Sequence record: OK335775.1
Origin: Escherichia phage PSD2002
Reading direction: 5' to 3' (one strand)
Length of the DNA stretch: 64,000 nucleotides
Part shown: positions 3,596 through 61,967 of the stretch, in pieces
Layout of the letters: the number at the start of each line of letters is the position of its first letter
Numbering within the stretch: the stretch's first letter is position 1
Translations under genes and position numbers: made by a program
Notes under the pieces: model-generated
Databases searched by the model: none
What the model was told of the DNA's origin: nothing
The model's input: the letters and a program-made list of their open reading frames with translations, nothing else

Positions 3596-3624
3596 GTTTA
3601 CATCTCCTGTAGGCGTGATACTAT
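3596..3624 (+). promoter_or_regulatory. T-even early promoter (GTTTAC-N17-TACTAT)
   Basis: Match to the T4 early promoter consensus with sigma70-like spacing. Confidence 0.6.
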
Positions 3625-3648
3625 AGACCTATCAACTTGGAGAACAAA

Positions 3649-9801: not shown

Positions 9802-10276
9802 ACTAGAATTCTTTGTTCGTGATTCTGCCGGACAAACGCGTCCTTATGATGCTACGGCGTGTCTTATCCTTGTCGATAATGGTACGAATTCTATAACCCA
9901 GCTAGAAACACGATTAAAAGATATTAAGCCACCAGAAAATATTCTAATGAAGGCATATCATAATAAAAATGTTGATGTTGCTGAGGGTTGTCCTTTTAGC
10001 CTGGCTGAAGCATTACATATCAAGGGTTATCGCCATCCGGACCCGTATGGCGAAGGAACAATGGACATTTTCTATAAAGATACCGATAGAATGTCCAACG
10101 AACGTCTTAAAGGTCGTACTTATCTTATTTCCGCTACCGAAGACCTTATTGAAGTTGAACGTCAGATTTGGAAGCACTTTGATATTGGATTGCGCTTTAC
10201 CATGACTGAAGACGCTATTCGTGATGCTAAGGTACGAGCTCGTATGTACGAGTACGGTCCTATCGGTGGTTACTAA
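9788..10276 (+). CDS. Hypothetical protein (occupies the mrh position of T4)
   Basis: 162-aa ORF with SD AGAGGA; assignment by position only. Confidence 0.45.
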
Positions 10277-10464
10277 TGGACTTATTTGATATGTTTGTCA
10301 TTCCGGACCCTGAGCCTGAAACAACTCAGGAGCCGCCTGTTGACCTTGTCAATGAACTTGATATGATTATACAGAAGCACGGTTTTAAGTTGCCTAAAGA
10401 TGCTCTTAGCGACCTTGCTTCTTATTACTTAGACCCTCCTCCATGGGCCCCTTGGGTAAAATAA
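10276..10464 (+). CDS. Hypothetical small acidic protein
   Basis: 62-aa ORF. Confidence 0.4.
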   Translation: MDLFDMFVIPDPEPETTQEPPVDLVNELDMIIQKHGFKLPKDALSDLASYYLDPPPWAPWVK

Positions 10465-10519
10465 AGTTTTACACCTCCTCCCTTCATGTTATAATGACCT
10501 CTAAATCACTGGAGGTCAT

Positions 10520-11089
10520 ATGAACATCGAACAAAAATGTCTTTATCAAGACCGAATCAATTCCAAATTCTCAAAACACGAACAGAATCTTTTAGAAAAA
10601 TGTCTAGATGCTAAAAAGGACCCTAACTTCCATTACGACCTTGATAAGCTAGTTCGTAAGCATGTTACTTCAGCGGTTCCGGTAGAGCTTTATCGTGGGA
10701 TTACCGCTATGGAACTTGAGCAACTTGAAGTTCTTTCTGTTGGGTGCCAGTGGTCTCCTGGCCGGGTTACTTCTTTTAGTACACAATACTCACAGGCTCG
10801 TCAGTTCGCAGGGGCATGGGAATATGGAACCAGAACCATTTTAAGTCTCAGGAATGCACCGTTCATTTTCGACTACTATAACCATGCTATCGACCTTGTT
10901 CTTGCAGGGAATGTGGATGAGCTTGAAATAGATGAAACCCGTATTGACCTCTATGATATGGTTGAAACTGAATGCGAGTTCATGGTCTCCAGCCAATCAC
11001 GATTTGAGATTGTGGAAATCGAAACCGTCAAAAGAGACCCGTACGAAATCGAGTATAAAACAATTCATTTAAAAATGTTGGATTTTTAG
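10520..11089 (+). CDS. ADP-ribosyltransferase, ModA/ModB-like
   Basis: 189 aa; R-S-E class ART signature LYRG ... SFSTQ ... ECEF in correct order and spacing; located between soc and dda where T4 encodes modA/modB. Confidence 0.6.
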   Translation: MNIEQKCLYQDRINSKFSKHEQNLLEKCLDAKKDPNFHYDLDKLVRKHVTSAVPVELYRGITAMELEQLEVLSVGCQWSPGRVTSFSTQYSQARQFAGAWEYGTRTILSLRNAPFIFDYYNHAIDLVLAGNVDELEIDETRIDLYDMVETECEFMVSSQSRFEIVEIETVKRDPYEIEYKTIHLKMLDF

Positions 11090-11143
11090 TTTACAGGCAA
11101 GGAAGCTTGTGGTACTATCTTTCTACCAACTGAGGAGAATAAT

Positions 11144-11758
11144 ATGTTATATCCGAGCCATAAATTAGCAGAATTTATCAACAACGCTAAATGCGATGAT
11201 TTCCGTGAGAATACTCAGATAGAAATTGATGAGGTGTATTCTGATTTAGAACAGAGTACCCTCTGGCAGTGCATGGAAAATAAACCAGATTGTATCCAGG
11301 AAACTCTGAACAAAATCATCCGTAAGAACCTGACTTCTGTAGTGCCTGATAAGCTCTATCGCGGCATATCTAAAAAGACTATGAAGTATCTAGAGTCCAC
11401 AATGTGTGTAGGTGCCGTAATTGAATTCGACCGAGTAATGAGCTTCTCTAAAGACTTCAACGTGGCAAGGAATTTTGCATCTTATAACTTCTATGGAACA
11501 TTTAATATCTTTTGTATTAATGATGCGCCATTTGTGTACAATTATCAGGAAGAAATCTTTAAAATGTTATGTGCTGCGCCCCCTGAAGAGTTCCCAGGCG
11601 CATTTCCTGAATCTACCCGTGTAGCAAACTTACAATTAATCAATGATGAAGATGAGATGATGTTCCCTGCGGGAACTACGCTGCGCGTAGACTCTATTGA
11701 GAGAAATCCTAAATGGAATAATTACACCATTTGGAATCTTTCCGTTCTTTCTTACTGA
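11144..11758 (+). CDS. ADP-ribosyltransferase, ModA/ModB-like paralog
   Basis: 204 aa; LYRGI ... MSFSKD ... DEDEMMF; shares the NAPF(I/V) and LYRGI blocks with the upstream ORF. Confidence 0.6.
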   Translation: MLYPSHKLAEFINNAKCDDFRENTQIEIDEVYSDLEQSTLWQCMENKPDCIQETLNKIIRKNLTSVVPDKLYRGISKKTMKYLESTMCVGAVIEFDRVMSFSKDFNVARNFASYNFYGTFNIFCINDAPFVYNYQEEIFKMLCAAPPEEFPGAFPESTRVANLQLINDEDEMMFPAGTTLRVDSIERNPKWNNYTIWNLSVLSY

Positions 11759-11827
11759 ACCACCCGGTTTAATTGAAAGGCAAAGTCCTTGATTCATTAT
11801 ACCGTCGAAAATTTAAAGCAAAAAAGT

Positions 11828-11856
11828 GTTTACTTTATCGAGTAACTTGATACTAT
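11828..11856 (+). promoter_or_regulatory. Early promoter
   Basis: GTTTAC-N17-TACTAT. Confidence 0.55.
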
Positions 11857-11882
11857 AGACATATCAACCAATCGTCCGTAAG

Positions 11883-12629
11883 ATGAGAAATATCATGACT
11901 ACTGAATTTGAGTTAAAGGTTTACAAACGTCGCGAACACACTAAAGCCTCTGCCAAAAAACGTGGTAAGGACTTTAACCTGTCTAGTAAGTATGTTCGTA
12001 GACTTCTTGAACAAAAAGTGTGTGCATATTCAGGCGAACGTTTTGATGAGAATTCAGTTAGTGATAAGATTTCATTTGAACGTTTTAATAATGATATTGG
12101 TTATATCGAAGGTAATGTAATCCCAGTTAAAGTCAAGTACAATAGCTTACGTGCTGATTTGTCTTTAGATGAATTGAAACGTGCACAGACTCGTTTAGCG
12201 TCCCGTATTTCAGGTGGTTCTAAAATGCCTAATAGTTTTAAAGTTACCCCAGATAATTATTATAAAATTCGTAAAATAGTTAAAAATATTAAAGATACCC
12301 AAAGAGGTCTTAAAAAGCGTGAAAAACGTCTTAAGGACCTTATTAAATCAGGAGCTACTGATAAGACCCCTTCCGTCATCGCGGTTAAAGCTCGTATCCA
12401 TGGTTCTAATGCTTCAATTGGTACTATGGAAAAAGGTCTTAAATCTTTAATCGGTGGGCCTGATTGGCGCGTCAAGTTTAAATTGTCTGAAGCAGAAACG
12501 CGTTACGATATGTATGATAAAATTATTCAAGGTCTGGAGCGTTTAGAACACCTTTCTTTTATTGACAAAATGAAGTTGAAAAAAGGTCTTCCACTGAATG
12601 CTTCAATTTTTTCACTGATTAGAGGTTAA
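11883..12629 (+). CDS. Hypothetical protein (srd position)
   Basis: 248-aa ORF between the ART pair and dda; own early promoter at 11828-11856; identity assigned by position only. Confidence 0.45.
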   Translation: MRNIMTTEFELKVYKRREHTKASAKKRGKDFNLSSKYVRRLLEQKVCAYSGERFDENSVSDKISFERFNNDIGYIEGNVIPVKVKYNSLRADLSLDELKRAQTRLASRISGGSKMPNSFKVTPDNYYKIRKIVKNIKDTQRGLKKREKRLKDLIKSGATDKTPSVIAVKARIHGSNASIGTMEKGLKSLIGGPDWRVKFKLSEAETRYDMYDKIIQGLERLEHLSFIDKMKLKKGLPLNASIFSLIRG

Positions 12630-12630
12630 C

Positions 12631-12930
12631 GTGATGTACTATGCATACGTATTAGTTCACAAGGACAAAGATGGATATGAAATTCCATTAGAAGAGGCAG
12701 GTGAAGTGACTTTGTATTCGACAAAGATCGGAGCCGACACAGCTCTATCTGATTATGAAATGACAACAAAAAGATATCTTCGGCTTGGACGCCTTGAAAC
12801 GGTGTGCACACCTAGAAAATGGTGGTTTGATAAGCGGGAAACTAAAACAGTATATCCTACCGAAGAACGAGCCCGAGAACTTAAATTAGTTTTAGACACT
12901 TTATATGTTAAGCGAGTAAAATTGGCATGA
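12631..12930 (+). CDS. Hypothetical protein (dda.1 position)
   Basis: 99-aa ORF immediately upstream of dda. Confidence 0.45.
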   Translation: MMYYAYVLVHKDKDGYEIPLEEAGEVTLYSTKIGADTALSDYEMTTKRYLRLGRLETVCTPRKWWFDKRETKTVYPTEERARELKLVLDTLYVKRVKLA

Positions 12931-14258
12931 TTACATTTGAAGACTTGAACATCGGCCAGAGGACGGCCTTTAAAGAAATCATTGAAGCTATTAAACGACG
13001 TAAGGGTGAATGGATTACATTGAACGGTCCAGCCGGTACAGGTAAAACAACCCTTACCAAATTTATTCTTGACCATCTAGTCAAGAATGGTGAACTCGGA
13101 GTTATTTTGACTGCACCCACTCATGCGGCCAAAAAGGTATTGTCGAAACTCGCAGGTCAAGAAGCATCAACAATCCATAGAATCTTAAAGATTAACCCTA
13201 CCACATACGAAGACCAGGACATCTTTGAACAACGCGAAGCTCCTGACTTGAGCAAATGTAACGTTCTGGTTGTTGATGAAGGCTCGATGATTGACGGTAA
13301 GCTGTTTAAGATTATCGAATCTTCAGTGCCACCATGGTGTACTGTATTAGGGATTGGCGACAGAGCTCAGCTACAGCCAGTGGAACCTGGAAGTGATGGT
13401 AGTCCACAGTTGTCTCCGTTCTTTACCCATCCAAAAATCAAGCAATTGCATTTGACCGAAGTAATGCGTAGCAATGCTCCAATCATTGAGGTTGCTACTG
13501 AAATCCGTAATGGCGGATGGTTTAGAGATTGTGTATTCGAAGGACATGGTGTCCATGGTTTTAAATCTCAAACTGCTTTAAAAGATTTTATGATGAATTA
13601 TTTTTCCATTGTAAAAGACGCGGATGCCTTATTTGAAAATAGGATGTTTGCTTATACAAATAAATCGGTTGAAAAGCTGAATAGCATTATTCGTAAAAAG
13701 CTTTATGAAACCGATGCACCTTATATCAAGGGTGAAATCCTGGTGATGCAAGAGCCTTTTATGAAGGAACTTGAATACGATGGTAAGAAATTCTCTGAAA
13801 CCATTTTTAATAACGGTCAAATGGTTCGTATTCTGGATGTGAACCACACCTCATTGTTCTTGTCTGCTAAGGATGTAGGCACTCGACAAATGATTAATTA
13901 CTGGGACCTGCAAGTAGAATCTATCGATGAAGATGATGAGTATTATGTAGAGCATTTAAAGGTTATCGATGAGGCTTCGGTTGAGAAGTTCCATTATTTC
14001 TTGGCTAGGGTTGCTACTGAATACAAAGCCATGCGTGGAACGGGTAAGAAACCTAAGTGGGCTGATTTTTGGAAAGCTAAGAGAATGTTTACTAAGGTTC
14101 GAGCTCTTCCTGTGAGCACTGTTCATAAATCCCAAGGACTTACAGTCCAAAACAGTTTCATCTATACTCCATGCATGCATATGGCTGATGCGAATTTAGC
14201 TTCACAGCTGGCTTATGTTAGTATTACTCGTGCTCGTACTGACGCCTACTACGTTTGA
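12927..14258 (+). CDS. dda: Dda SF1 DNA helicase
   Basis: 443 aa; Walker A GPAGTGKTT, helicase motifs; strong match to T4 Dda as recalled. Confidence 0.95.
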   Translation: MITFEDLNIGQRTAFKEIIEAIKRRKGEWITLNGPAGTGKTTLTKFILDHLVKNGELGVILTAPTHAAKKVLSKLAGQEASTIHRILKINPTTYEDQDIFEQREAPDLSKCNVLVVDEGSMIDGKLFKIIESSVPPWCTVLGIGDRAQLQPVEPGSDGSPQLSPFFTHPKIKQLHLTEVMRSNAPIIEVATEIRNGGWFRDCVFEGHGVHGFKSQTALKDFMMNYFSIVKDADALFENRMFAYTNKSVEKLNSIIRKKLYETDAPYIKGEILVMQEPFMKELEYDGKKFSETIFNNGQMVRILDVNHTSLFLSAKDVGTRQMINYWDLQVESIDEDDEYYVEHLKVIDEASVEKFHYFLARVATEYKAMRGTGKKPKWADFWKAKRMFTKVRALPVSTVHKSQGLTVQNSFIYTPCMHMADANLASQLAYVSITRARTDAYYV

Positions 14259-14265
14259 GGAAAAT

Positions 14266-14505
14266 ATGATTAAAGTAACTAAAGACCAATTTTATAAGTT
14301 GAAATTCGAAACCGAACATATTATTAAAGTCAACCAAAATAATATCAGCATTAGGCAAAAGGCCCATACTGTCCTGAACTCTCTTAAAGAGATTGAAAGT
14401 GATTTTATTGCAGTACAAAATCTGATGGACGACAATATCTCTTCGGTTTATATTGAAGACTACACCGTTGGCCAAATCCGAGACCTTATGAGGTACGTTA
14501 AATGA
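14266..14505 (+). CDS. Hypothetical small protein
   Basis: ATG 14266 after GAGGAAAA; the ORF-track N-terminal extension overlaps the dda C-terminus. Confidence 0.4.
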   Translation: MIKVTKDQFYKLKFETEHIIKVNQNNISIRQKAHTVLNSLKEIESDFIAVQNLMDDNISSVYIEDYTVGQIRDLMRYVK

Positions 14506-15176
14506 AAGATATAATTATTGACTTTGAAACCTTTGCCACTACTCAAAATGCAGCGGTTATCGACCTAGCCGTAATTGCTTACGACCCTAATCCAGAGGTT
14601 GTAGAAACGTTTGAAGAGCTTACTCAACGAGGCCTTCGTATTAAATTTGACCTCGCTTCTCAACGTGATAAACGACTGTTTTCTAAAAGCACGTTGCAGT
14701 GGTGGAAAGAGCAAGGGCCTGAAGCGCGTAAAAACCTGGCTCCATCTGAAATTGATGTGTCCACTTCTATTGGTCTCGGTAATTTCCTGGAATACTGCCG
14801 TAAAAACGAAGTAGACCAATGGAAATCCCAGATGTGGTGTCGTGGAATGTCCTTTGACTTTCCTATCTTAGTCGACCTTATTCGTGATGCTTATCGTTCT
14901 GAAGGGGTTCCTGAGAATGAAATCGATACCAGTAAATTAGAACCGGTTAAATTCTGGAACCAACGTGACATCCGTACAGCTATTGAAGCATATTCACTAA
15001 CTCGTGGATTGAGCATGTGTCCTCTGCCTAACGGAACATTGAACGGCTTTGTTGCTCATGACTCCATCCATGACTGTGCTAAGGATATCTTGATGCTGAA
15101 ATATGCCCAACGTTATGCCTTAGGCCTGGAAGATGTCCCTGAGAATCCGGACCCATTAAGTATAAAAAATCGATAA
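14502..15176 (+). CDS. dexA: DexA exonuclease A (DEDD family)
   Basis: 224 aa; N-terminal IIDFETFA exonuclease motif; size and position as T4 dexA. Confidence 0.8.
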   Translation: MKDIIIDFETFATTQNAAVIDLAVIAYDPNPEVVETFEELTQRGLRIKFDLASQRDKRLFSKSTLQWWKEQGPEARKNLAPSEIDVSTSIGLGNFLEYCRKNEVDQWKSQMWCRGMSFDFPILVDLIRDAYRSEGVPENEIDTSKLEPVKFWNQRDIRTAIEAYSLTRGLSMCPLPNGTLNGFVAHDSIHDCAKDILMLKYAQRYALGLEDVPENPDPLSIKNR

Positions 15177-15180
15177 AAGT

Positions 15181-15209
15181 GTTTACTTCTCCTCATGACA
15201 TGTTATTAT
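15181..15209 (+). promoter_or_regulatory. Early promoter embedded in a 10-bp inverted repeat
   Basis: GTTTAC-N17-TATTAT; arms TCTCCTCATG (15188-15197) and CATGAGGAGA (15222-15231). Confidence 0.6.
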
Positions 15210-15236
15210 CTACCCTATCAACATGAGGAGAACAAA

Positions 15237-15746
15237 ATGAAAATTTATCGAGTGGAGTCATCGTTCAGTATCTTAGATAACAGCGATGTTATAGCAATCA
15301 CTCACCAACAGTGCCGCCAATTAACACCGTATAGAGGCTCGTTTGATGAATGGAGCGAAGGTTGGTTATTAGAAGTAGGTTTCGACAAACCTAATTTTAG
15401 ACACCACCATACCAATAATAAAAATATTCCGCTACCAGGTCAAGACAAGTTGTTGGTGGAAAATTCTAATAAAAGCATTAGAACTAAGTGGAACCAGCCT
15501 GATTATGAAGGCTGTGATGATTGTATTCCAGGTTGGTTTGTTAATCTCTACCATTTTGCTTTTGCCAGCGAGTATGATATGATGCGCTGGTTCACTCGTG
15601 AAGAGCGTGAAGAATTATCTTCTAAAGGATTCTATCTTGCTGTTTACGAAATCCCTGAAGATGAGGTTGTCATTGGTAGCCGTCAATTAATGTTCCGCAA
15701 ATCCTATGCCGAACTCGTAGATTTTATTGAAATGAGAAAATTATGA
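15237..15746 (+). CDS. Hypothetical protein
   Basis: ATG 15237 after GAGGAG; early promoter 15181-15209 with flanking inverted repeat. Confidence 0.45.
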   Translation: MKIYRVESSFSILDNSDVIAITHQQCRQLTPYRGSFDEWSEGWLLEVGFDKPNFRHHHTNNKNIPLPGQDKLLVENSNKSIRTKWNQPDYEGCDDCIPGWFVNLYHFAFASEYDMMRWFTREEREELSSKGFYLAVYEIPEDEVVIGSRQLMFRKSYAELVDFIEMRKL

Positions 15747-16291
15747 AATTTAATTATAACCCTGAATATACACCAAATCCTGCAGCTAAACTGATTGATT
15801 TTGATGTTTTAAGCACTTATGTATGCCCTGTTAAACCACTGGAAATTAAGGAAACCACTATGACTACTCAGACTATCGAAATCGGCAAAACCTACAAACT
15901 GGTTGAACCTGAAATTAAAACTAAGGCCTTGATTTCCGGCCATAAAACCCTGACTGATGTTTTTGGTGAAGGCGAATTTATTGTTGAAGAATTTGCCAAA
16001 AGTGAGTGGTTCTCTAAAGCCTATATTCTCCACGGCCGTCGTTTAGACAATAACAAAATTGAGCAAACCCTGGTTTATGAAGATGAGTTCATCCTGTTCC
16101 AAGAAGTTGAAGAACAAGACCCTACCGACCTTCTGTGTGCTGCTGTGTCTATCCGTCGTCCTTTTGATAATCCTATCTGTGGTTGGGTAACAGACCAGTG
16201 GGTTGAAGACGGTGTTGAGCTGCTGAACGTTGTACATGCTGGTGATTTTAGCGTAGTACCTCGTAGTGCAGTGGTTAATGTATTGAATTAG
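15743..16291 (+). CDS. Hypothetical protein, paralog family A
   Basis: 182 aa; C-terminal block TDQWVEDGVELLNVVHAGDFSVVP shared with ORF 16365..16916. Confidence 0.5.
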   Translation: MKFNYNPEYTPNPAAKLIDFDVLSTYVCPVKPLEIKETTMTTQTIEIGKTYKLVEPEIKTKALISGHKTLTDVFGEGEFIVEEFAKSEWFSKAYILHGRRLDNNKIEQTLVYEDEFILFQEVEEQDPTDLLCAAVSIRRPFDNPICGWVTDQWVEDGVELLNVVHAGDFSVVPRSAVVNVLN

Positions 16292-16293
16292 TA

Positions 16294-16322
16294 GTTTACT
16301 TTATCGAGAGCCGTGTTATAAT
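16294..16322 (+). promoter_or_regulatory. Early promoter
   Basis: GTTTAC-N17-TATAAT with flanking inverted repeat GAGAGCC/GGCTCTC. Confidence 0.6.
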
Positions 16323-16364
16323 GGCTCTCATGGAGAATAAACTTATTAACCAAGAGAGAAAATT

Positions 16365-16916
16365 ATGATTACTATCGGTGAAATTGTTCGTGTATCCAAA
16401 GAATCTCGCTCAAAAGCCGCAGGTCGTTTTGTTGAAGTTGCTGGTATTCGTACTAATTTAGTAGGTGGAATTAAAGAAGTTAAAGTGCGTATTATTCCTA
16501 AAAATGGCCAGACTGAAACTCAATTCGCTTATGTGCATCCTAAATTCCTGGAATCAACTGAATTCACTGGACACATCGCTCCTGTAGTTGAAGAAGTTGA
16601 ATCCCATGATGGGTATGTATGTGAAAGCAATGATATCCGTGGCGTAGTAGCTCAAGACGTTGAAACTATTGACCAATCTCATGTTGGTGTTGATTTCAAA
16701 TGGAAATTAGGTAAAGGTGTCTTTTTCGTTTCACCTAAACCGTTTGAATACAATTGCAAGTATGGTCCGACTTATGAAACCACTAGTATGTCCGGTTACA
16801 TCACAGACCAATGGGTTGAAGAAGGTGTTAAGCTGTATAACATCGTGTTCCTTGGCACCTTTAAAGTAGTTCCTGAAAGTTTTATTGTTGAGTACGCTGA
16901 TATTCATTTTGCATAA
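16365..16916 (+). CDS. Hypothetical protein, paralog family A
   Basis: 183 aa; C-terminal block TDQWVEEGVKLYNIVFLGTFKVVP. Confidence 0.5.
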   Translation: MITIGEIVRVSKESRSKAAGRFVEVAGIRTNLVGGIKEVKVRIIPKNGQTETQFAYVHPKFLESTEFTGHIAPVVEEVESHDGYVCESNDIRGVVAQDVETIDQSHVGVDFKWKLGKGVFFVSPKPFEYNCKYGPTYETTSMSGYITDQWVEEGVKLYNIVFLGTFKVVPESFIVEYADIHFA

Positions 16917-16988
16917 AGTTTAAAAACAGTATACAACAGGGTAGTAGTGTGATACTATTACCCTATCAACAAATGAGAGGAAAATAAA

Positions 16989-17207
16989 ATGGCTAAAGTT
17001 ACTGTGAACTCGACTCGTGAAGAATTTGAAGATGTTCTGTTCAACCCTGATTTAATCGTGGTTCAAAAGGAACATTCTGATACGTTTTCTCATTTATCGT
17101 CGGTTTATGTATACGAAAACCAAGGTGATGAAAACCCTATCTATGCGGTGTTCCGTGAAATCACTGCTGAAGGCACCGACTTCTGGAAGGAAACTTATAA
17201 TGCTTAA
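16989..17207 (+). CDS. Hypothetical small protein
   Basis: 72-aa ORF after early promoter. Confidence 0.4.
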   Translation: MAKVTVNSTREEFEDVLFNPDLIVVQKEHSDTFSHLSSVYVYENQGDENPIYAVFREITAEGTDFWKETYNA

Positions 17208-25699: not shown

Positions 25700-25728
25700 G
25701 TATACATCTCCGTTAATCATGATACTAT
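25700..25728 (+). promoter_or_regulatory. Early promoter
   Basis: GTATAC-N17-TACTAT, with inverted repeat CATCTCC/GGAGATG. Confidence 0.5.
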
Positions 25729-25754
25729 AGACCTATCAACTAATGGAGATGATT

Positions 25755-25865
25755 ATGAAAAACTTACTTAAAGCAATTTGGAACATGTTTGTGTTGTTAA
25801 TGGTATTGAGCATTTTCCCAATCGTTTTTATGATTGACCATGTACGTGTATTCTTTAACTTCTGA
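25755..25865 (+). CDS. Hypothetical small membrane peptide
   Basis: 36-aa hydrophobic ORF after promoter 25700-25728. Confidence 0.3.
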   Translation: MKNLLKAIWNMFVLLMVLSIFPIVFMIDHVRVFFNF

Positions 25866-26443: not shown

Positions 26444-26471
26444 TTTACAACCTCGAGAATCATGTTATAAT
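26443..26471 (+). promoter_or_regulatory. Early promoter upstream of ndd
   Basis: GTTTAC-N17-TATAAT. Confidence 0.6.
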
Positions 26472-26520
26472 GGTTCTCGTTGACTGGATAACAAAACATT
26501 AATCTACTGAGGAAATTGAT

Positions 26521-28875: not shown

Positions 28876-28904
28876 GTTTACATCTGCTTTAAACATGATA
28901 CTAT
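28876..28904 (+). promoter_or_regulatory. Early promoter upstream of motA
   Basis: GTTTAC-N17-TACTAT. Confidence 0.6.
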
Positions 28905-28939
28905 AGACCTATCAAATAAATGGTTATCGGAGATACAAA

Positions 28940-42402: not shown

Positions 42403-42433
42403 GGACCTCTCAACTACTTGAACAGAGGTTCAT

Positions 42434-46288: not shown

Positions 46289-46317
46289 GTTTACAACGCC
46301 TTTAAACATGATACTAT
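46289..46317 (+). promoter_or_regulatory. Early promoter cassette
   Basis: GTTTACAACGCCTTTAAACATGATACTATAGACCTATCAACTA; an identical copy begins at 46995. Confidence 0.6.
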
Positions 46318-46346
46318 AGACCTATCAACTACATGAGGAAATAAAA

Positions 46347-46994: not shown

Positions 46995-47023
46995 GTTTAC
47001 AACGCCTTTAAACATGATACTAT
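46995..47023 (+). promoter_or_regulatory. Early promoter cassette (duplicate)
   Basis: Same sequence as the 46289 cassette. Confidence 0.6.
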
Positions 47024-47055
47024 AGACCTATCAACTAATGAGTGAGGAAAATAAA

Positions 47056-54208: not shown

Positions 54209-54236
54209 TTTACATCTCCTCATGATGTGTTAGTAT
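54208..54236 (+). promoter_or_regulatory. Early promoter embedded in a 9-bp inverted repeat
   Basis: GTTTAC-N17-TAGTAT; arms TCTCCTCAT / ATGAGGAGA, the downstream arm being the SD. Confidence 0.6.
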
Positions 54237-54266
54237 AGACTTACCAACTAATGAGGAGAAAACAAA

Positions 54267-54767
54267 ATGAATATGCAAATGATTACTAACGAAATGGTTG
54301 TTAAGGCTTTTGGTGATTCTACTGACGGTATCCAAGTTTTTAAAGGTTCTCGTGCAGTAGGTTACCTGACCGATCTTCGTGTTACTTTAGCTAAAAATGC
54401 TAAAAAGAAAATCAAGCAAAAAGAATACTCTACCCGTTACGCTGAAGAAAAGCGTGAAGCCATGCCCGAAGCTGTTAACTCTATGGTTGAGTTTCTCCGA
54501 AACAACCTTTCCAAATACGATGCCGAGGTGTTTATTAATATTAGCCAACCTAATGTTAAAATCTCAGGCATCACTTTCTATTTGATTTGTGACCCATTAA
54601 GCGACAAGTTTAATCGCCTTGGCATTTCAAGTCCTTACCATACTGCTGAAGAATTATGTTTTATGTTTGAAACGTATAAAATTCAGTGTGAAAATCCTAA
54701 AACGGTTCTTATTAATTCCCTGTCACGTGATGACATCATCGAGATTATTACCAAATGTCTAAATTAA
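54267..54767 (+). CDS. Hypothetical protein (alc position)
   Basis: 166 aa; size and position correspond to T4 alc but similarity could not be confirmed from memory. Confidence 0.4.
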   Translation: MNMQMITNEMVVKAFGDSTDGIQVFKGSRAVGYLTDLRVTLAKNAKKKIKQKEYSTRYAEEKREAMPEAVNSMVEFLRNNLSKYDAEVFINISQPNVKISGITFYLICDPLSDKFNRLGISSPYHTAEELCFMFETYKIQCENPKTVLINSLSRDDIIEIITKCLN

Positions 54768-55499: not shown

Positions 55500-55528
55500 T
55501 TTACAAACTCTTGGGAGCAGAGTATAAT
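55499..55528 (+). promoter_or_regulatory. Early promoter
   Basis: GTTTAC ... TATAAT. Confidence 0.55.
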
Positions 55529-55562
55529 GCTCCTACGGATTATAAAATTTGAGGAAATTATT

Positions 55563-57937: not shown

Positions 57938-58000
57938 GTGTTTACACTATGGTAGGACTGTGGTATAGTAGTCCTACCGAAACAAATGAGGAAATCGAAA

Positions 58001-61445: not shown

Positions 61446-61474
61446 GGTGTACATCTCCGGTAGGCATGATACTA
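61446..61474 (+). promoter_or_regulatory. Early promoter cassette
   Basis: GTGTAC ... TACTAT followed by the leader ACCAAATAATACGAAAACAAACT, which is repeated at 61925. Confidence 0.5.
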
Positions 61475-61516
61475 TAGACATGTACCAAATAATACGAAAA
61501 CAAACTGGAGAATAAA

Positions 61517-61889: not shown

Positions 61890-61919
61890 GTTTACTTTGG
61901 TACAGGTTGTGTTATTATA
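61890..61919 (+). promoter_or_regulatory. Early promoter cassette
   Basis: GTTTAC ... TATTAT flanked by inverted repeat GGTACAGG/CCTGTACC, then the same leader as at 61475. Confidence 0.55.
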
Positions 61920-61967
61920 GACCTGTACCAAATAATACGAAAACAAACTAAACCAAAGGATAATAAA

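Follow-up and report, generated by a model that had tools for sequence, protein, structure and literature searches.

Why should an early promoter of a T4-like phage lie inside an inverted repeat whose downstream arm is the Shine-Dalgarno (SD) sequence of the very gene that the promoter drives? The question is raised by positions 15181-15746 of a 64,000-nucleotide stretch of Escherichia phage PSD2002 (OK335775.1; the whole stretch is called the window below), where such a repeat precedes a motB.2-like gene, and by similar repeats that precede alc, modB and an open reading frame (ORF) of 36 codons. On the strength of predicted folds and of comparisons among relatives, we think it rather probable that at a subset of early promoters a cis-acting RNA hairpin gates translation according to the point at which the transcript starts. 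In both this phage and T4, a gene with such a hairpin is probably translated only from transcripts of its own promoter.

Architecture of the hairpins

The window is 91-98% identical to the JS98/IME08/Bp7/QL01 group of T4-like coliphages (97.9% in the case of LHE83; Bp7 is classified as a Dhakavirus), and early transcription runs along its + strand. Synteny with Bp7 and T4, together with PHROG matches, was used to identify the genes at the four sites. On this basis modB, alc, the motB.2-like gene and the 36-aa ORF count among the early genes of host takeover. A preliminary description made from the sequence had called them accessory ORFs, a label that hardly suits a set including modB and alc.

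At motB.2 the stem consists of 11 perfect pairs and encloses the -10 of a T4-type early promoter, whose start is predicted at ~15216-15217 from the -10 spacing (Table 1). The -10 lies in the hairpin loop at three of the sites and overlaps the 5' arm at modB; three of the four loops measure 24-27 nt, and the stems are moderately G+C-rich. All the inner promoters are of the early type (GTTTAC-N16/17-TAnnAT) and not of the T4 late type (TATAAATA), and their consensus matches are kept in relatives. A start ~7 nt past the -10 is predicted to fall 3' of the 5' arm or, at modB, on the last one or two bases of that arm. The layout thus agrees with the claim that a locally initiated transcript would be without the 5' arm and would leave the SD free, the arm being upstream of any start that the embedded promoter is predicted to use.

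The preliminary description had placed a 10-bp repeat at 15188-15231 around the -10 of motB.2; the repeat is present and its downstream arm is the SD, yet it is 11 bp long (15187-97/15222-32). The CATCTCC/GGAGATG pair noted at 25706 likewise exists in the same design; it starts at 25705 and comprises 11 bp, of which one is G·U. That the design recurs at 54215 holds as it was stated, since the arms there flank the -10 TAGTAT and the 3' arm is the SD of alc. At modB, both halves of the ACCTCC/GGAGGT pair given as 10474-10514 occur, one base off, at 10473-78/10511-16, but the conserved fold uses 10494-503/10510-19. ACCTCC/GGAGGT was rejected as the main modB structure because the minimum free energy (MFE) fold pairs the SD with 10494-503, and the spacer arm is lost in locus L028, where the 10494-type arm is kept.

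An in-frame ATG at 15195-15197, within the 5' arm of motB.2, causes the mechanical ORF call to begin at 15195 rather than at 15237. Automatic annotation could thus extend the motB.2-like gene too far, across the promoter that drives it.

Cost of opening the ribosome site at 25 early promoters

The energetic comparison covered 25 curated + strand early promoters (GTTTAC-N16/17-TAnnAT with an AT-rich upstream region, followed by an SD and ATG). Opening cost is the free energy needed to make the ribosome site (-15 to +3) single-stranded, and was computed for a long RNA beginning 60 nt upstream of the -35 and for a short RNA beginning at the predicted start site. At motB.2 it amounts to 17.9 kcal/mol in the long RNA as against 4.7 in the short (a difference of 13.2), at modB to 17.0 against 3.4 (13.7), at the 36-aa ORF to 12.9 against 2.1 (10.8), and at alc to 9.4 against 1.1 (8.3). 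MFE folds place the SD and/or the start codon of the long transcript in a stable helix at all four sites (9-18 kcal/mol), and the short leaders are unstructured, with short-form folds at z >= +0.5. These folds bear out the expectation that read-through RNA should mask the SD, the predicted opening cost being 8-14 kcal/mol higher in the long form. Work of de Smit and van Duin on MS2 reportedly found that ~1.4 kcal/mol of structure at the ribosome site costs about ten-fold in translation; by that figure, 8-14 kcal/mol would leave a gene effectively off, provided that equilibrium folding applies.

Five further promoters (42375, 24999, 3597, 11829 and 61448) show differences of 3.6-6.2 kcal/mol, and at about 16 of the 25 the difference is near zero or negative. 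SD masking is therefore a specific design of a promoter subset, comprising four strong and some four to five weaker cases among the 25, and not the general feature that it had been taken for. In the leader of rnh, GGACCTCT at 42403-42410, right after the -10, pairs with AGAGGTTC at 42424-42431, at the SD, in a layout of the modB type; the opening-cost difference is 6.2 kcal/mol, and the upstream neighbour lies on the opposite strand.

Several controls address chance. Across the 25 promoters, the pairing of a spacer with its own SD beats that with the SDs of other promoters (permutation p=0.004 for stem length and p=0.023 for duplex energy). When upstream halves were swapped, every one of the 24 foreign halves masked less well than the native half at 10468, 15182 and 25701; at five more promoters, 54209 among them, the native half outdid 23 of the 24 (overall p=0.006). 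Long RNAs around 15182 and 10468 fold more stably than each of 200 shuffles (z=-3.3 and -3.0). In nine of the 25 promoters the -10 is enclosed by a helix exceeding the 95th percentile of shuffles; four of these helices end in the SD, and the other five (16295, 26444, 55500, 57941 and 61891) enclose the -10 alone, like the published promoter-early stem-loop (PeSL) elements.

Conservation and covariation in relatives

Orthologous leaders were taken from IMG/VR loci and from T4; locus searches with one protein at a time yielded few lineages, and a useful breadth was provided by the Dda alignment with 5-kb flanks. The motB.2 arms differ among lineages and remain paired: TTCTCCTCATG / CATGAGGAGAA in this group, UCCUCGGU(U)AG / CUACUGAGGA in T4-type phages, and TTCTCCTCTGGTT / AACCAGAGGAGAA, with 13 perfect pairs, in phiE142-type phages. 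At modB there are at least seven lineage versions, every one of them paired, and the 36-aa ORF has three (Table 1); these two sites show the strongest conservation. Arms matched within a lineage pair more stably than arms combined across lineages, with mean energies of -16.8 against -11.1 kcal/mol at modB (none of 20,000 permutations as good) and -16.7 against -12.4 kcal/mol at motB.2 (p=0.0015).

For the covariation scores the arms were aligned without gaps, the second G of the SD serving as anchor, with loops removed and a duplex predicted for each sequence. For motB.2 and the 36-aa ORF together the score is 0.470, as against 0.194±0.023 in shuffled controls (0 of 500 reach it) and at most 0.21 in slid registers; seven core pairs are never broken, and individual pairs occur as AU, GC, UA and GU. 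At modB the score is 0.555 against 0.280±0.031 (again 0 of 500), and 88.5% of cells are paired, compared with 74.5% after shuffling and at most 56% in slid registers. RNAalifold on plain MAFFT alignments of the leaders was discarded; it misregistered several lineages, owing to unequal loop lengths and displaced TCTCC/TCC cores, and it under-counted pairs.

Of the 449 pairs in the sense-strand stems, 46 are G·U, and the antisense stems are weaker in most lineages, these positions becoming A·C. Such G·U pairs on the sense strand only point to an RNA structure selected in the sense transcript rather than to a cruciform, and a DNA cruciform was ruled out on this strand asymmetry.

Table 1. Genes, promoter elements and hairpin arms at the SD-masking sites, with arm versions in relatives (5' arm / 3' arm)
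Site	Feature	Sequence	Position in window	Strand	Basis or remark
motB.2	motB.2-like ORF, 169 aa		15237..15746	+	Bp7/T4 annotation; phrog_1106
motB.2	-35	GTTTAC	15181..15186	+	sequence, promoter scans; kept in all relatives
motB.2	5' arm (anti-SD), in promoter spacer	TTCTCCTCATG	15187..15197	+	sequence, spacer-SD pairing, fold, helix scan
motB.2	-10, within hairpin loop	TATTAT	15204..15209	+	sequence, promoter scans
motB.2	3' arm, includes SD GAGGAG (15225-30)	CATGAGGAGAA	15222..15232	+	sequence, fold
alc	ORF, host-transcription inhibitor		54267-54767	+	phrog_1253
alc	-35	TTTACA	54209-54214	+	
alc	5' arm, in early-promoter spacer	TCTCCTCAT	54215..54223	+	sequence, pairing, fold; kept in JS98/Bp7-group loci L014-L019
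alc	-10	TAGTAT	54231-54236	+	
alc	3' arm, SD of alc	ATGAGGAGA	54251..54259	+	sequence, opening cost
36-aa ORF	conserved ORF upstream of ndd		25755-25865	+	phrog_3098
36-aa ORF	-35-like	TATACA	25701-25706	+	
36-aa ORF	5' arm, in promoter spacer	CATCTCCGTTA	25705..25715	+	sequence, fold; three lineage variants pair; 11-bp stem with one G·U
36-aa ORF	-10	TACTAT	25723-25728	+	
36-aa ORF	3' arm, its SD	TAATGGAGATG	25741..25751	+	sequence, opening cost
36-aa ORF	arms, version 1 of 3	CATCTCC(A/G)TTA / TAATGGAGATG			
36-aa ORF	arms, version 2 of 3	CATCTCCGGT / ACTGGAGATG			
36-aa ORF	arms, version 3 of 3, T4-type phages	CTGTTCCTCCGTGGT / ACTACGGAGGAACAG			15 bp
modB	ORF, ADP-ribosylase		10520-11089	+	Bp7/T4 synteny, PHROG match
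modB	-35	TTTACA	10468-10473	+	
modB	-10	TATAAT	10490-10495	+	
modB	conserved 5' arm, last two -10 bases to ~+1	ATGACCTCTA	10494..10503	+	MFE fold; at least 7 paired lineage versions
modB	3' arm, SD up to the base preceding ATG	TGGAGGTCAT	10510..10519	+	sequence, fold, opening cost, covariation
modB	spacer anti-SD (arm of the preliminary description)	ACCTCC	10473..10478	+	partner GGAGGT 10511-16; secondary at best
modB	arms, this group	ATGACCTCT / GGAGGTCAT			
modB	arms, Serratia phage CHI14	ATAGTCTTCT / AGGAGACTAT			
modB	arms, further version	GATGTCTTCC / GGAGGACATC			
modB	arms, Citrobacter phage CF1/Moon	GATAGCCTT / GGAGGCTATC			
modB	arms, T4	GATAGCTTCT / GGAGGCTATC			
modB	arms, Klebsiella T4-like phage	GTTAGTATCTCT / GGAGATACTAAC			
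modB	arms, further version	GATGACCTTC / GGAGGTCATC			
ORF 61517	5' arm, weaker example	TCTCCGGT	61454..61461	+	opening-cost difference 3.6 kcal/mol; assessed in this window
ORF 61517	3' arm, SD of ORF 61517	ACTGGAGA	61504-11	+	pairs with 61454..61461

Proposed mechanism

In the mechanism that we favor, the promoter DNA would double as the template of an anti-SD, which lies in the spacer just past the -35 at motB.2, alc and the 36-aa ORF, and between the end of the -10 and ~+1 at modB. A polymerase arriving from the upstream gene would copy both arms, so that a stem of 9-15 bp buries the SD (at modB also the bases up to the AUG), and 30S subunits could not bind to the buried SD. RNA started locally would begin 3' of the 5' arm with an unstructured leader of 18-24 nt and would be translated. 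The products of modB, alc and motB.2 in this phage, and of denV and regB in T4, would accordingly be made in the immediate-early burst only, the same genes remaining silent on delayed-early and middle read-through RNA. Pairing would also, as a likely side effect, hide GGAG from the RegB nuclease on long transcripts. RegB is a likely partner of the hairpins: an SD left free on a short RNA would serve translation first and be cleaved afterwards, and paired SDs on long RNAs would undergo neither. The analysis itself establishes the repeats, their placement with respect to the promoter elements, the predicted energies, the covariation and the bias to the sense strand; promoter activity, start sites, read-through RNA and the translational block are what we infer in this scheme.

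A wider proposal is plausible but tentative, and falls somewhat short of probable. In it, T4-like phages of several groups would carry conserved dual-coded elements: the DNA of an early promoter, in its spacer or its -10/+1 region, would at the same time specify the anti-SD of the gene that it drives. The small regulon would comprise modB, alc, motB.2, regB, denV and a small membrane ORF, each translated only from its own immediate-early transcript, and this rule would act with RegB to give a sharp pulse of expression. Elements of this kind would constrain the shuffling of promoter cassettes, since a crossover within the loop separates one arm from the other.

Several points weigh against the proposed gating. 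The promoters are known as consensus matches conserved across relatives, and the starts are predicted ones. The large loops (24-27 nt at the three sites) mean that folding might lose to co-transcriptional ribosome loading. In T4, RegB cleaves the modB RNA in vivo even though this RNA can form a structure, perhaps while it is nascent (Durand 2006, PMC1702504); such structures therefore need not form on nascent RNA, and kinetics could weaken the masking. With regard to the statistics, the register of the pair counts was set from one predicted pair per sequence with the loops removed, which leans towards structure, the aligned sequences are related by descent, and the shuffle counts are not probabilities. 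The 140-nt z-scores at 54209 (-1.1) and 25701 (-1.0) are not significant. Finally, the compensatory change in relatives that the preliminary description had named as a test, evident at motB.2, modB and the 36-aa ORF, where pairing is kept with differing sequences, does not extend to alc, whose SD-masking stem is limited to the JS98/Bp7 group. In T4-type phages the alc leader carries an 11-bp stem that surrounds just the -10, and masking is absent from one relative of 83% identity.

Comparison with known systems

The closest precedent is found among T4 late genes: e (lysozyme), soc, 49 and I-TevI each have a hairpin that sequesters the ribosome site and contains a late promoter (PMC3014915, section 29). 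As in those genes, the SD and/or AUG are predicted here to be paired in upstream-derived RNA, and RNA from the inner promoter to lack the 5' arm; in the T4 genes translation is tied to promoter choice, and the same logic is proposed here. The classical cases that had been invoked as a model thus share this logic, but their temporal sense is reversed: their inner promoter is late (TATAAATA, gp55-dependent) and prevents early expression of a late function, whereas here it is an early, sigma-70-type promoter and expression would be confined to the immediate-early burst. A further distinction is that the 5' arm is here part of the promoter spacer or of the -10/+1 region itself.

The second comparison is with PeSLs, intergenic cassettes of an early promoter, a stem-loop and an SD with ATG in T4-like phages (PMC2839356, PMC4122927). 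Their stem often lies in the stretch that separates the -35 from the -10, or overlaps the -10, and the cassettes are common to unrelated genes. The present sites share with them a strong sigma-70-like early promoter with an AT-rich upstream region, an intergenic position, a following SD and ATG, and a promoter-associated stem-loop. PeSL stems, however, have been interpreted as sites of termination or attenuation and of recombination, the SD being drawn as a distinct 3' element, whereas in the present hairpins the SD itself supplies one of the arms, there is no T-run after it and orthologues show covariation of the pairs. Intrinsic terminators resemble these hairpins in being intergenic stem-loops downstream of a stop codon, and differ from them in that the hairpins have 24-27 nt loops (three of four), moderately G+C-rich stems and no U-tract. 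RegB acts on the same SDs and also shortens early-gene expression, and structure protects GGAG from its cleavage; it is, however, a trans-acting nuclease, and the hairpin is a cis element that would act on another set of transcripts, the read-through RNAs.

Elements of the same architecture were already marked in T4 in 1986, when GenBank record X04567 noted "imp. inverted repeat C/C'" (denV) and "D/D'" (ORF 61.9, that is regB) as potential terminators of the upstream gene. In C/C', TCTCCTGTAG and CTACAGGAGA flank the -10 and the ribosome site lies inside C'; D/D' is a 15-bp stem with 2 G·U. The record gives neither a translational role nor comparative evidence. In the ~58 kb of T4 covered, at least five such promoters occur, those of denV, regB, motB.2, modB and the 36-aa ORF; the T4 RefSeq record contains no promoter features, and we found no T4 start-site sequencing in the accessible literature. 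The accessible reviews and papers contain no statement that hairpins spanning early promoters gate translation, nor comparative evidence for it, although older subscription literature was not covered and a prior description is possible. The promoter-in-hairpin logic of T4 late genes and the stem-loops of early promoters are thus known, and what would be new is the conserved early-promoter variant with the SD as an arm.

Alternative explanations

The stems could be composites of the PeSL type, acting mainly as terminators or attenuators of upstream transcription and as recombination cassettes, with incidental complementarity to the SD. Early-promoter stem-loops have indeed been described in T4-like phages, and one RB49 stem cut lacZ expression about as strongly as the rrnB T1 terminator (Arbiol 2010, PMC2839356; Comeau 2014, PMC4122927); the denV and regB repeats bear the label "pot. 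transcription terminator" in the T4 record of 1986; and there are signs of cassette shuffling, in that a T4-type alc promoter closely resembles the one at window position 57941, ahead of a different gene, and the promoter at 3597 bears the T4 denV 5' arm without its partner. Yet no T-run follows the 3' arms, which are succeeded by ACAAAATG, ATTATG or ATG (site by site, CAAAATG, AAACAAAATG, ATTATG and ATG), and on this ground an intrinsic terminator was rejected. When 10000-17200 was scanned for terminator patterns, none coincided with the stems of modB or motB.2, and the six sites of that scan compare with 5.2 expected from shuffles, so that there is no regional excess and read-through from modA.2 and dexA is structurally unimpeded and plausible. 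Incidental complementarity would moreover leave unexplained why the 3' arm is always the SD and why orthologues show compensatory changes, and the RB49 and PST stems as described exclude the SD. We regard this composite as unlikely. We are equally doubtful that the selected function is a shield against RegB, which would hide the GGAG of the SD on long polycistronic RNAs and keep the RNA of downstream genes intact, with silence as a by-product. RegB cleaves the GGAG of early SDs where it is single-stranded, and secondary structure blocks this cleavage (PMC3014915, PMC1702504); phages close to the window encode a RegB homologue, and the SDs of motB.2 and alc consist of GGAG and an A-rich run, like good RegB substrates when unpaired. 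Against such a shield, the T4 motB.2 SD is GGAU and the stem is kept nonetheless, the SDs of modB and the 36-aa ORF lack the A-rich 3' context, and modB stems reach the AUG, which is more than the shielding of GGAG needs. Shielding is in any case compatible with translational gating rather than exclusive of it.

Two other readings fare worse. Under translational coupling, ribosomes finishing the upstream ORF would melt the stem, and downstream translation would be proportional to that of the upstream gene rather than silenced. The upstream stop codon lies 6 nt from the 5' arm at alc and 10 nt at motB.2, where a terminating ribosome could contribute; at modB and the 36-aa ORF, the two strongest-conserved sites, the gaps are 29 nt and 95 nt, probably beyond the reach of such a ribosome. 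General coupling was rejected on these distances, and we hold it to be very unlikely. Slighter still is the chance that the repeats have no RNA function, and that a pyrimidine-rich spacer complements a purine-rich SD by accident or the repeat works at the DNA level, as a cruciform or protein-binding site. Several early spacers do start with TCTCC- or CCTC-like sequences regardless of what lies downstream, and TCTCC pairs with any GGAGA SD. Nevertheless, each of the five TCTCC spacers is followed by a GGAGA SD, although only 11 of the 25 promoters have such an SD (~0.9%, hypergeometric), the pairing runs past the SD core with site-specific sequences, covariation lies above both shuffled and slid controls, and the sense-only G·U pairs oppose a cruciform, so that this reading is already disfavoured.

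Promoter cassettes elsewhere in the window

Besides the SD-masking hairpins, the window holds a second class of stems, 9-13 bp long and enclosing the -10 only, at 16306-16329, 26454-26479, 55512-55535, 57950-57979 and 61896-61932. They end 20-41 nt before the ATG, do not mask the SD and resemble published PeSL stems. Equivalent stems occur at the motB and cef promoters, where the sequence changes and the pairing is kept across relatives.

Some cassettes recur in other settings. The T4-type alc cassette (ATGGTAGGACTGTGATAAAATAGTCCTACCAT) of loci L022 and L024 (~405-500) is nearly the same as the window promoter 57941 (57941-57999), which stands ahead of ORF 58000, and alc in this phage instead bears a cassette resembling that of motB.2; this looks like an exchange of promoter cassettes between genes. 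At 3597-3648, compared with positions 1719-1776 of locus L107, the 5' arm of promoter 3597 is the same as that of T4 denV (TCTCCTGTAGG) and the SD region retains GGAGA only (5 bp), an arrangement that would be the expected product of a crossover inside the loop, unlinking the arms. Cassettes identical over ~40 nt (TTTACAACGCCTTTAAACATGATACTATAGACCTATCAACTA) lie 706 bp apart at 46290-46330 and 46996-47036, as direct repeats flanking small ORFs, the layout proposed to generate PeSL mini-circles, and a third, similar copy stands ahead of motA at 28877-28915. Promoters 61448 and 61891 have in common a leader of ~25 nt, GTACCAAATAATACGAAAACAAACT, downstream of the -10 (~61476-61500 and ~61920-61944), ahead of different ORFs.

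Terminator-like signals accompany two other promoters. The spacer of the modA promoter contains a hairpin, ACAGGC/GCTTGT, followed by a T-rich stretch (11091-11112), which is the sole terminator-like match overlapping a promoter in 10000-17200. In a lineage with 48%-identical Alc (L021, L023 and L025, ~425-460), the region upstream of alc has GGGGTGTACAAGCCCC and then TTCTTTCT, overlapping a TGTACA -35; judged by its sequence, and in contrast to the SD-masking stems, it is a true composite of terminator and promoter.

Implications

T4 itself, with the genetics that exist for it, allows a direct test of the idea at motB.2, modB, denV and regB. If it is true, a cis-acting translational layer would be added to the early-to-middle switch of T4-like phages, in which early shut-off would proceed by promoter inactivation and RegB cleavage and, at selected genes, by read-through RNA that cannot be translated. 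Stem-loops annotated as terminators since 1986, and part of the PeSLs, would be reinterpreted. Moving such a gene or swapping its promoter would alter its translation, a caution for annotators and phage engineers alike. More generally, one stretch of DNA would serve in these phages both as a promoter element and as a regulatory arm of the RNA.

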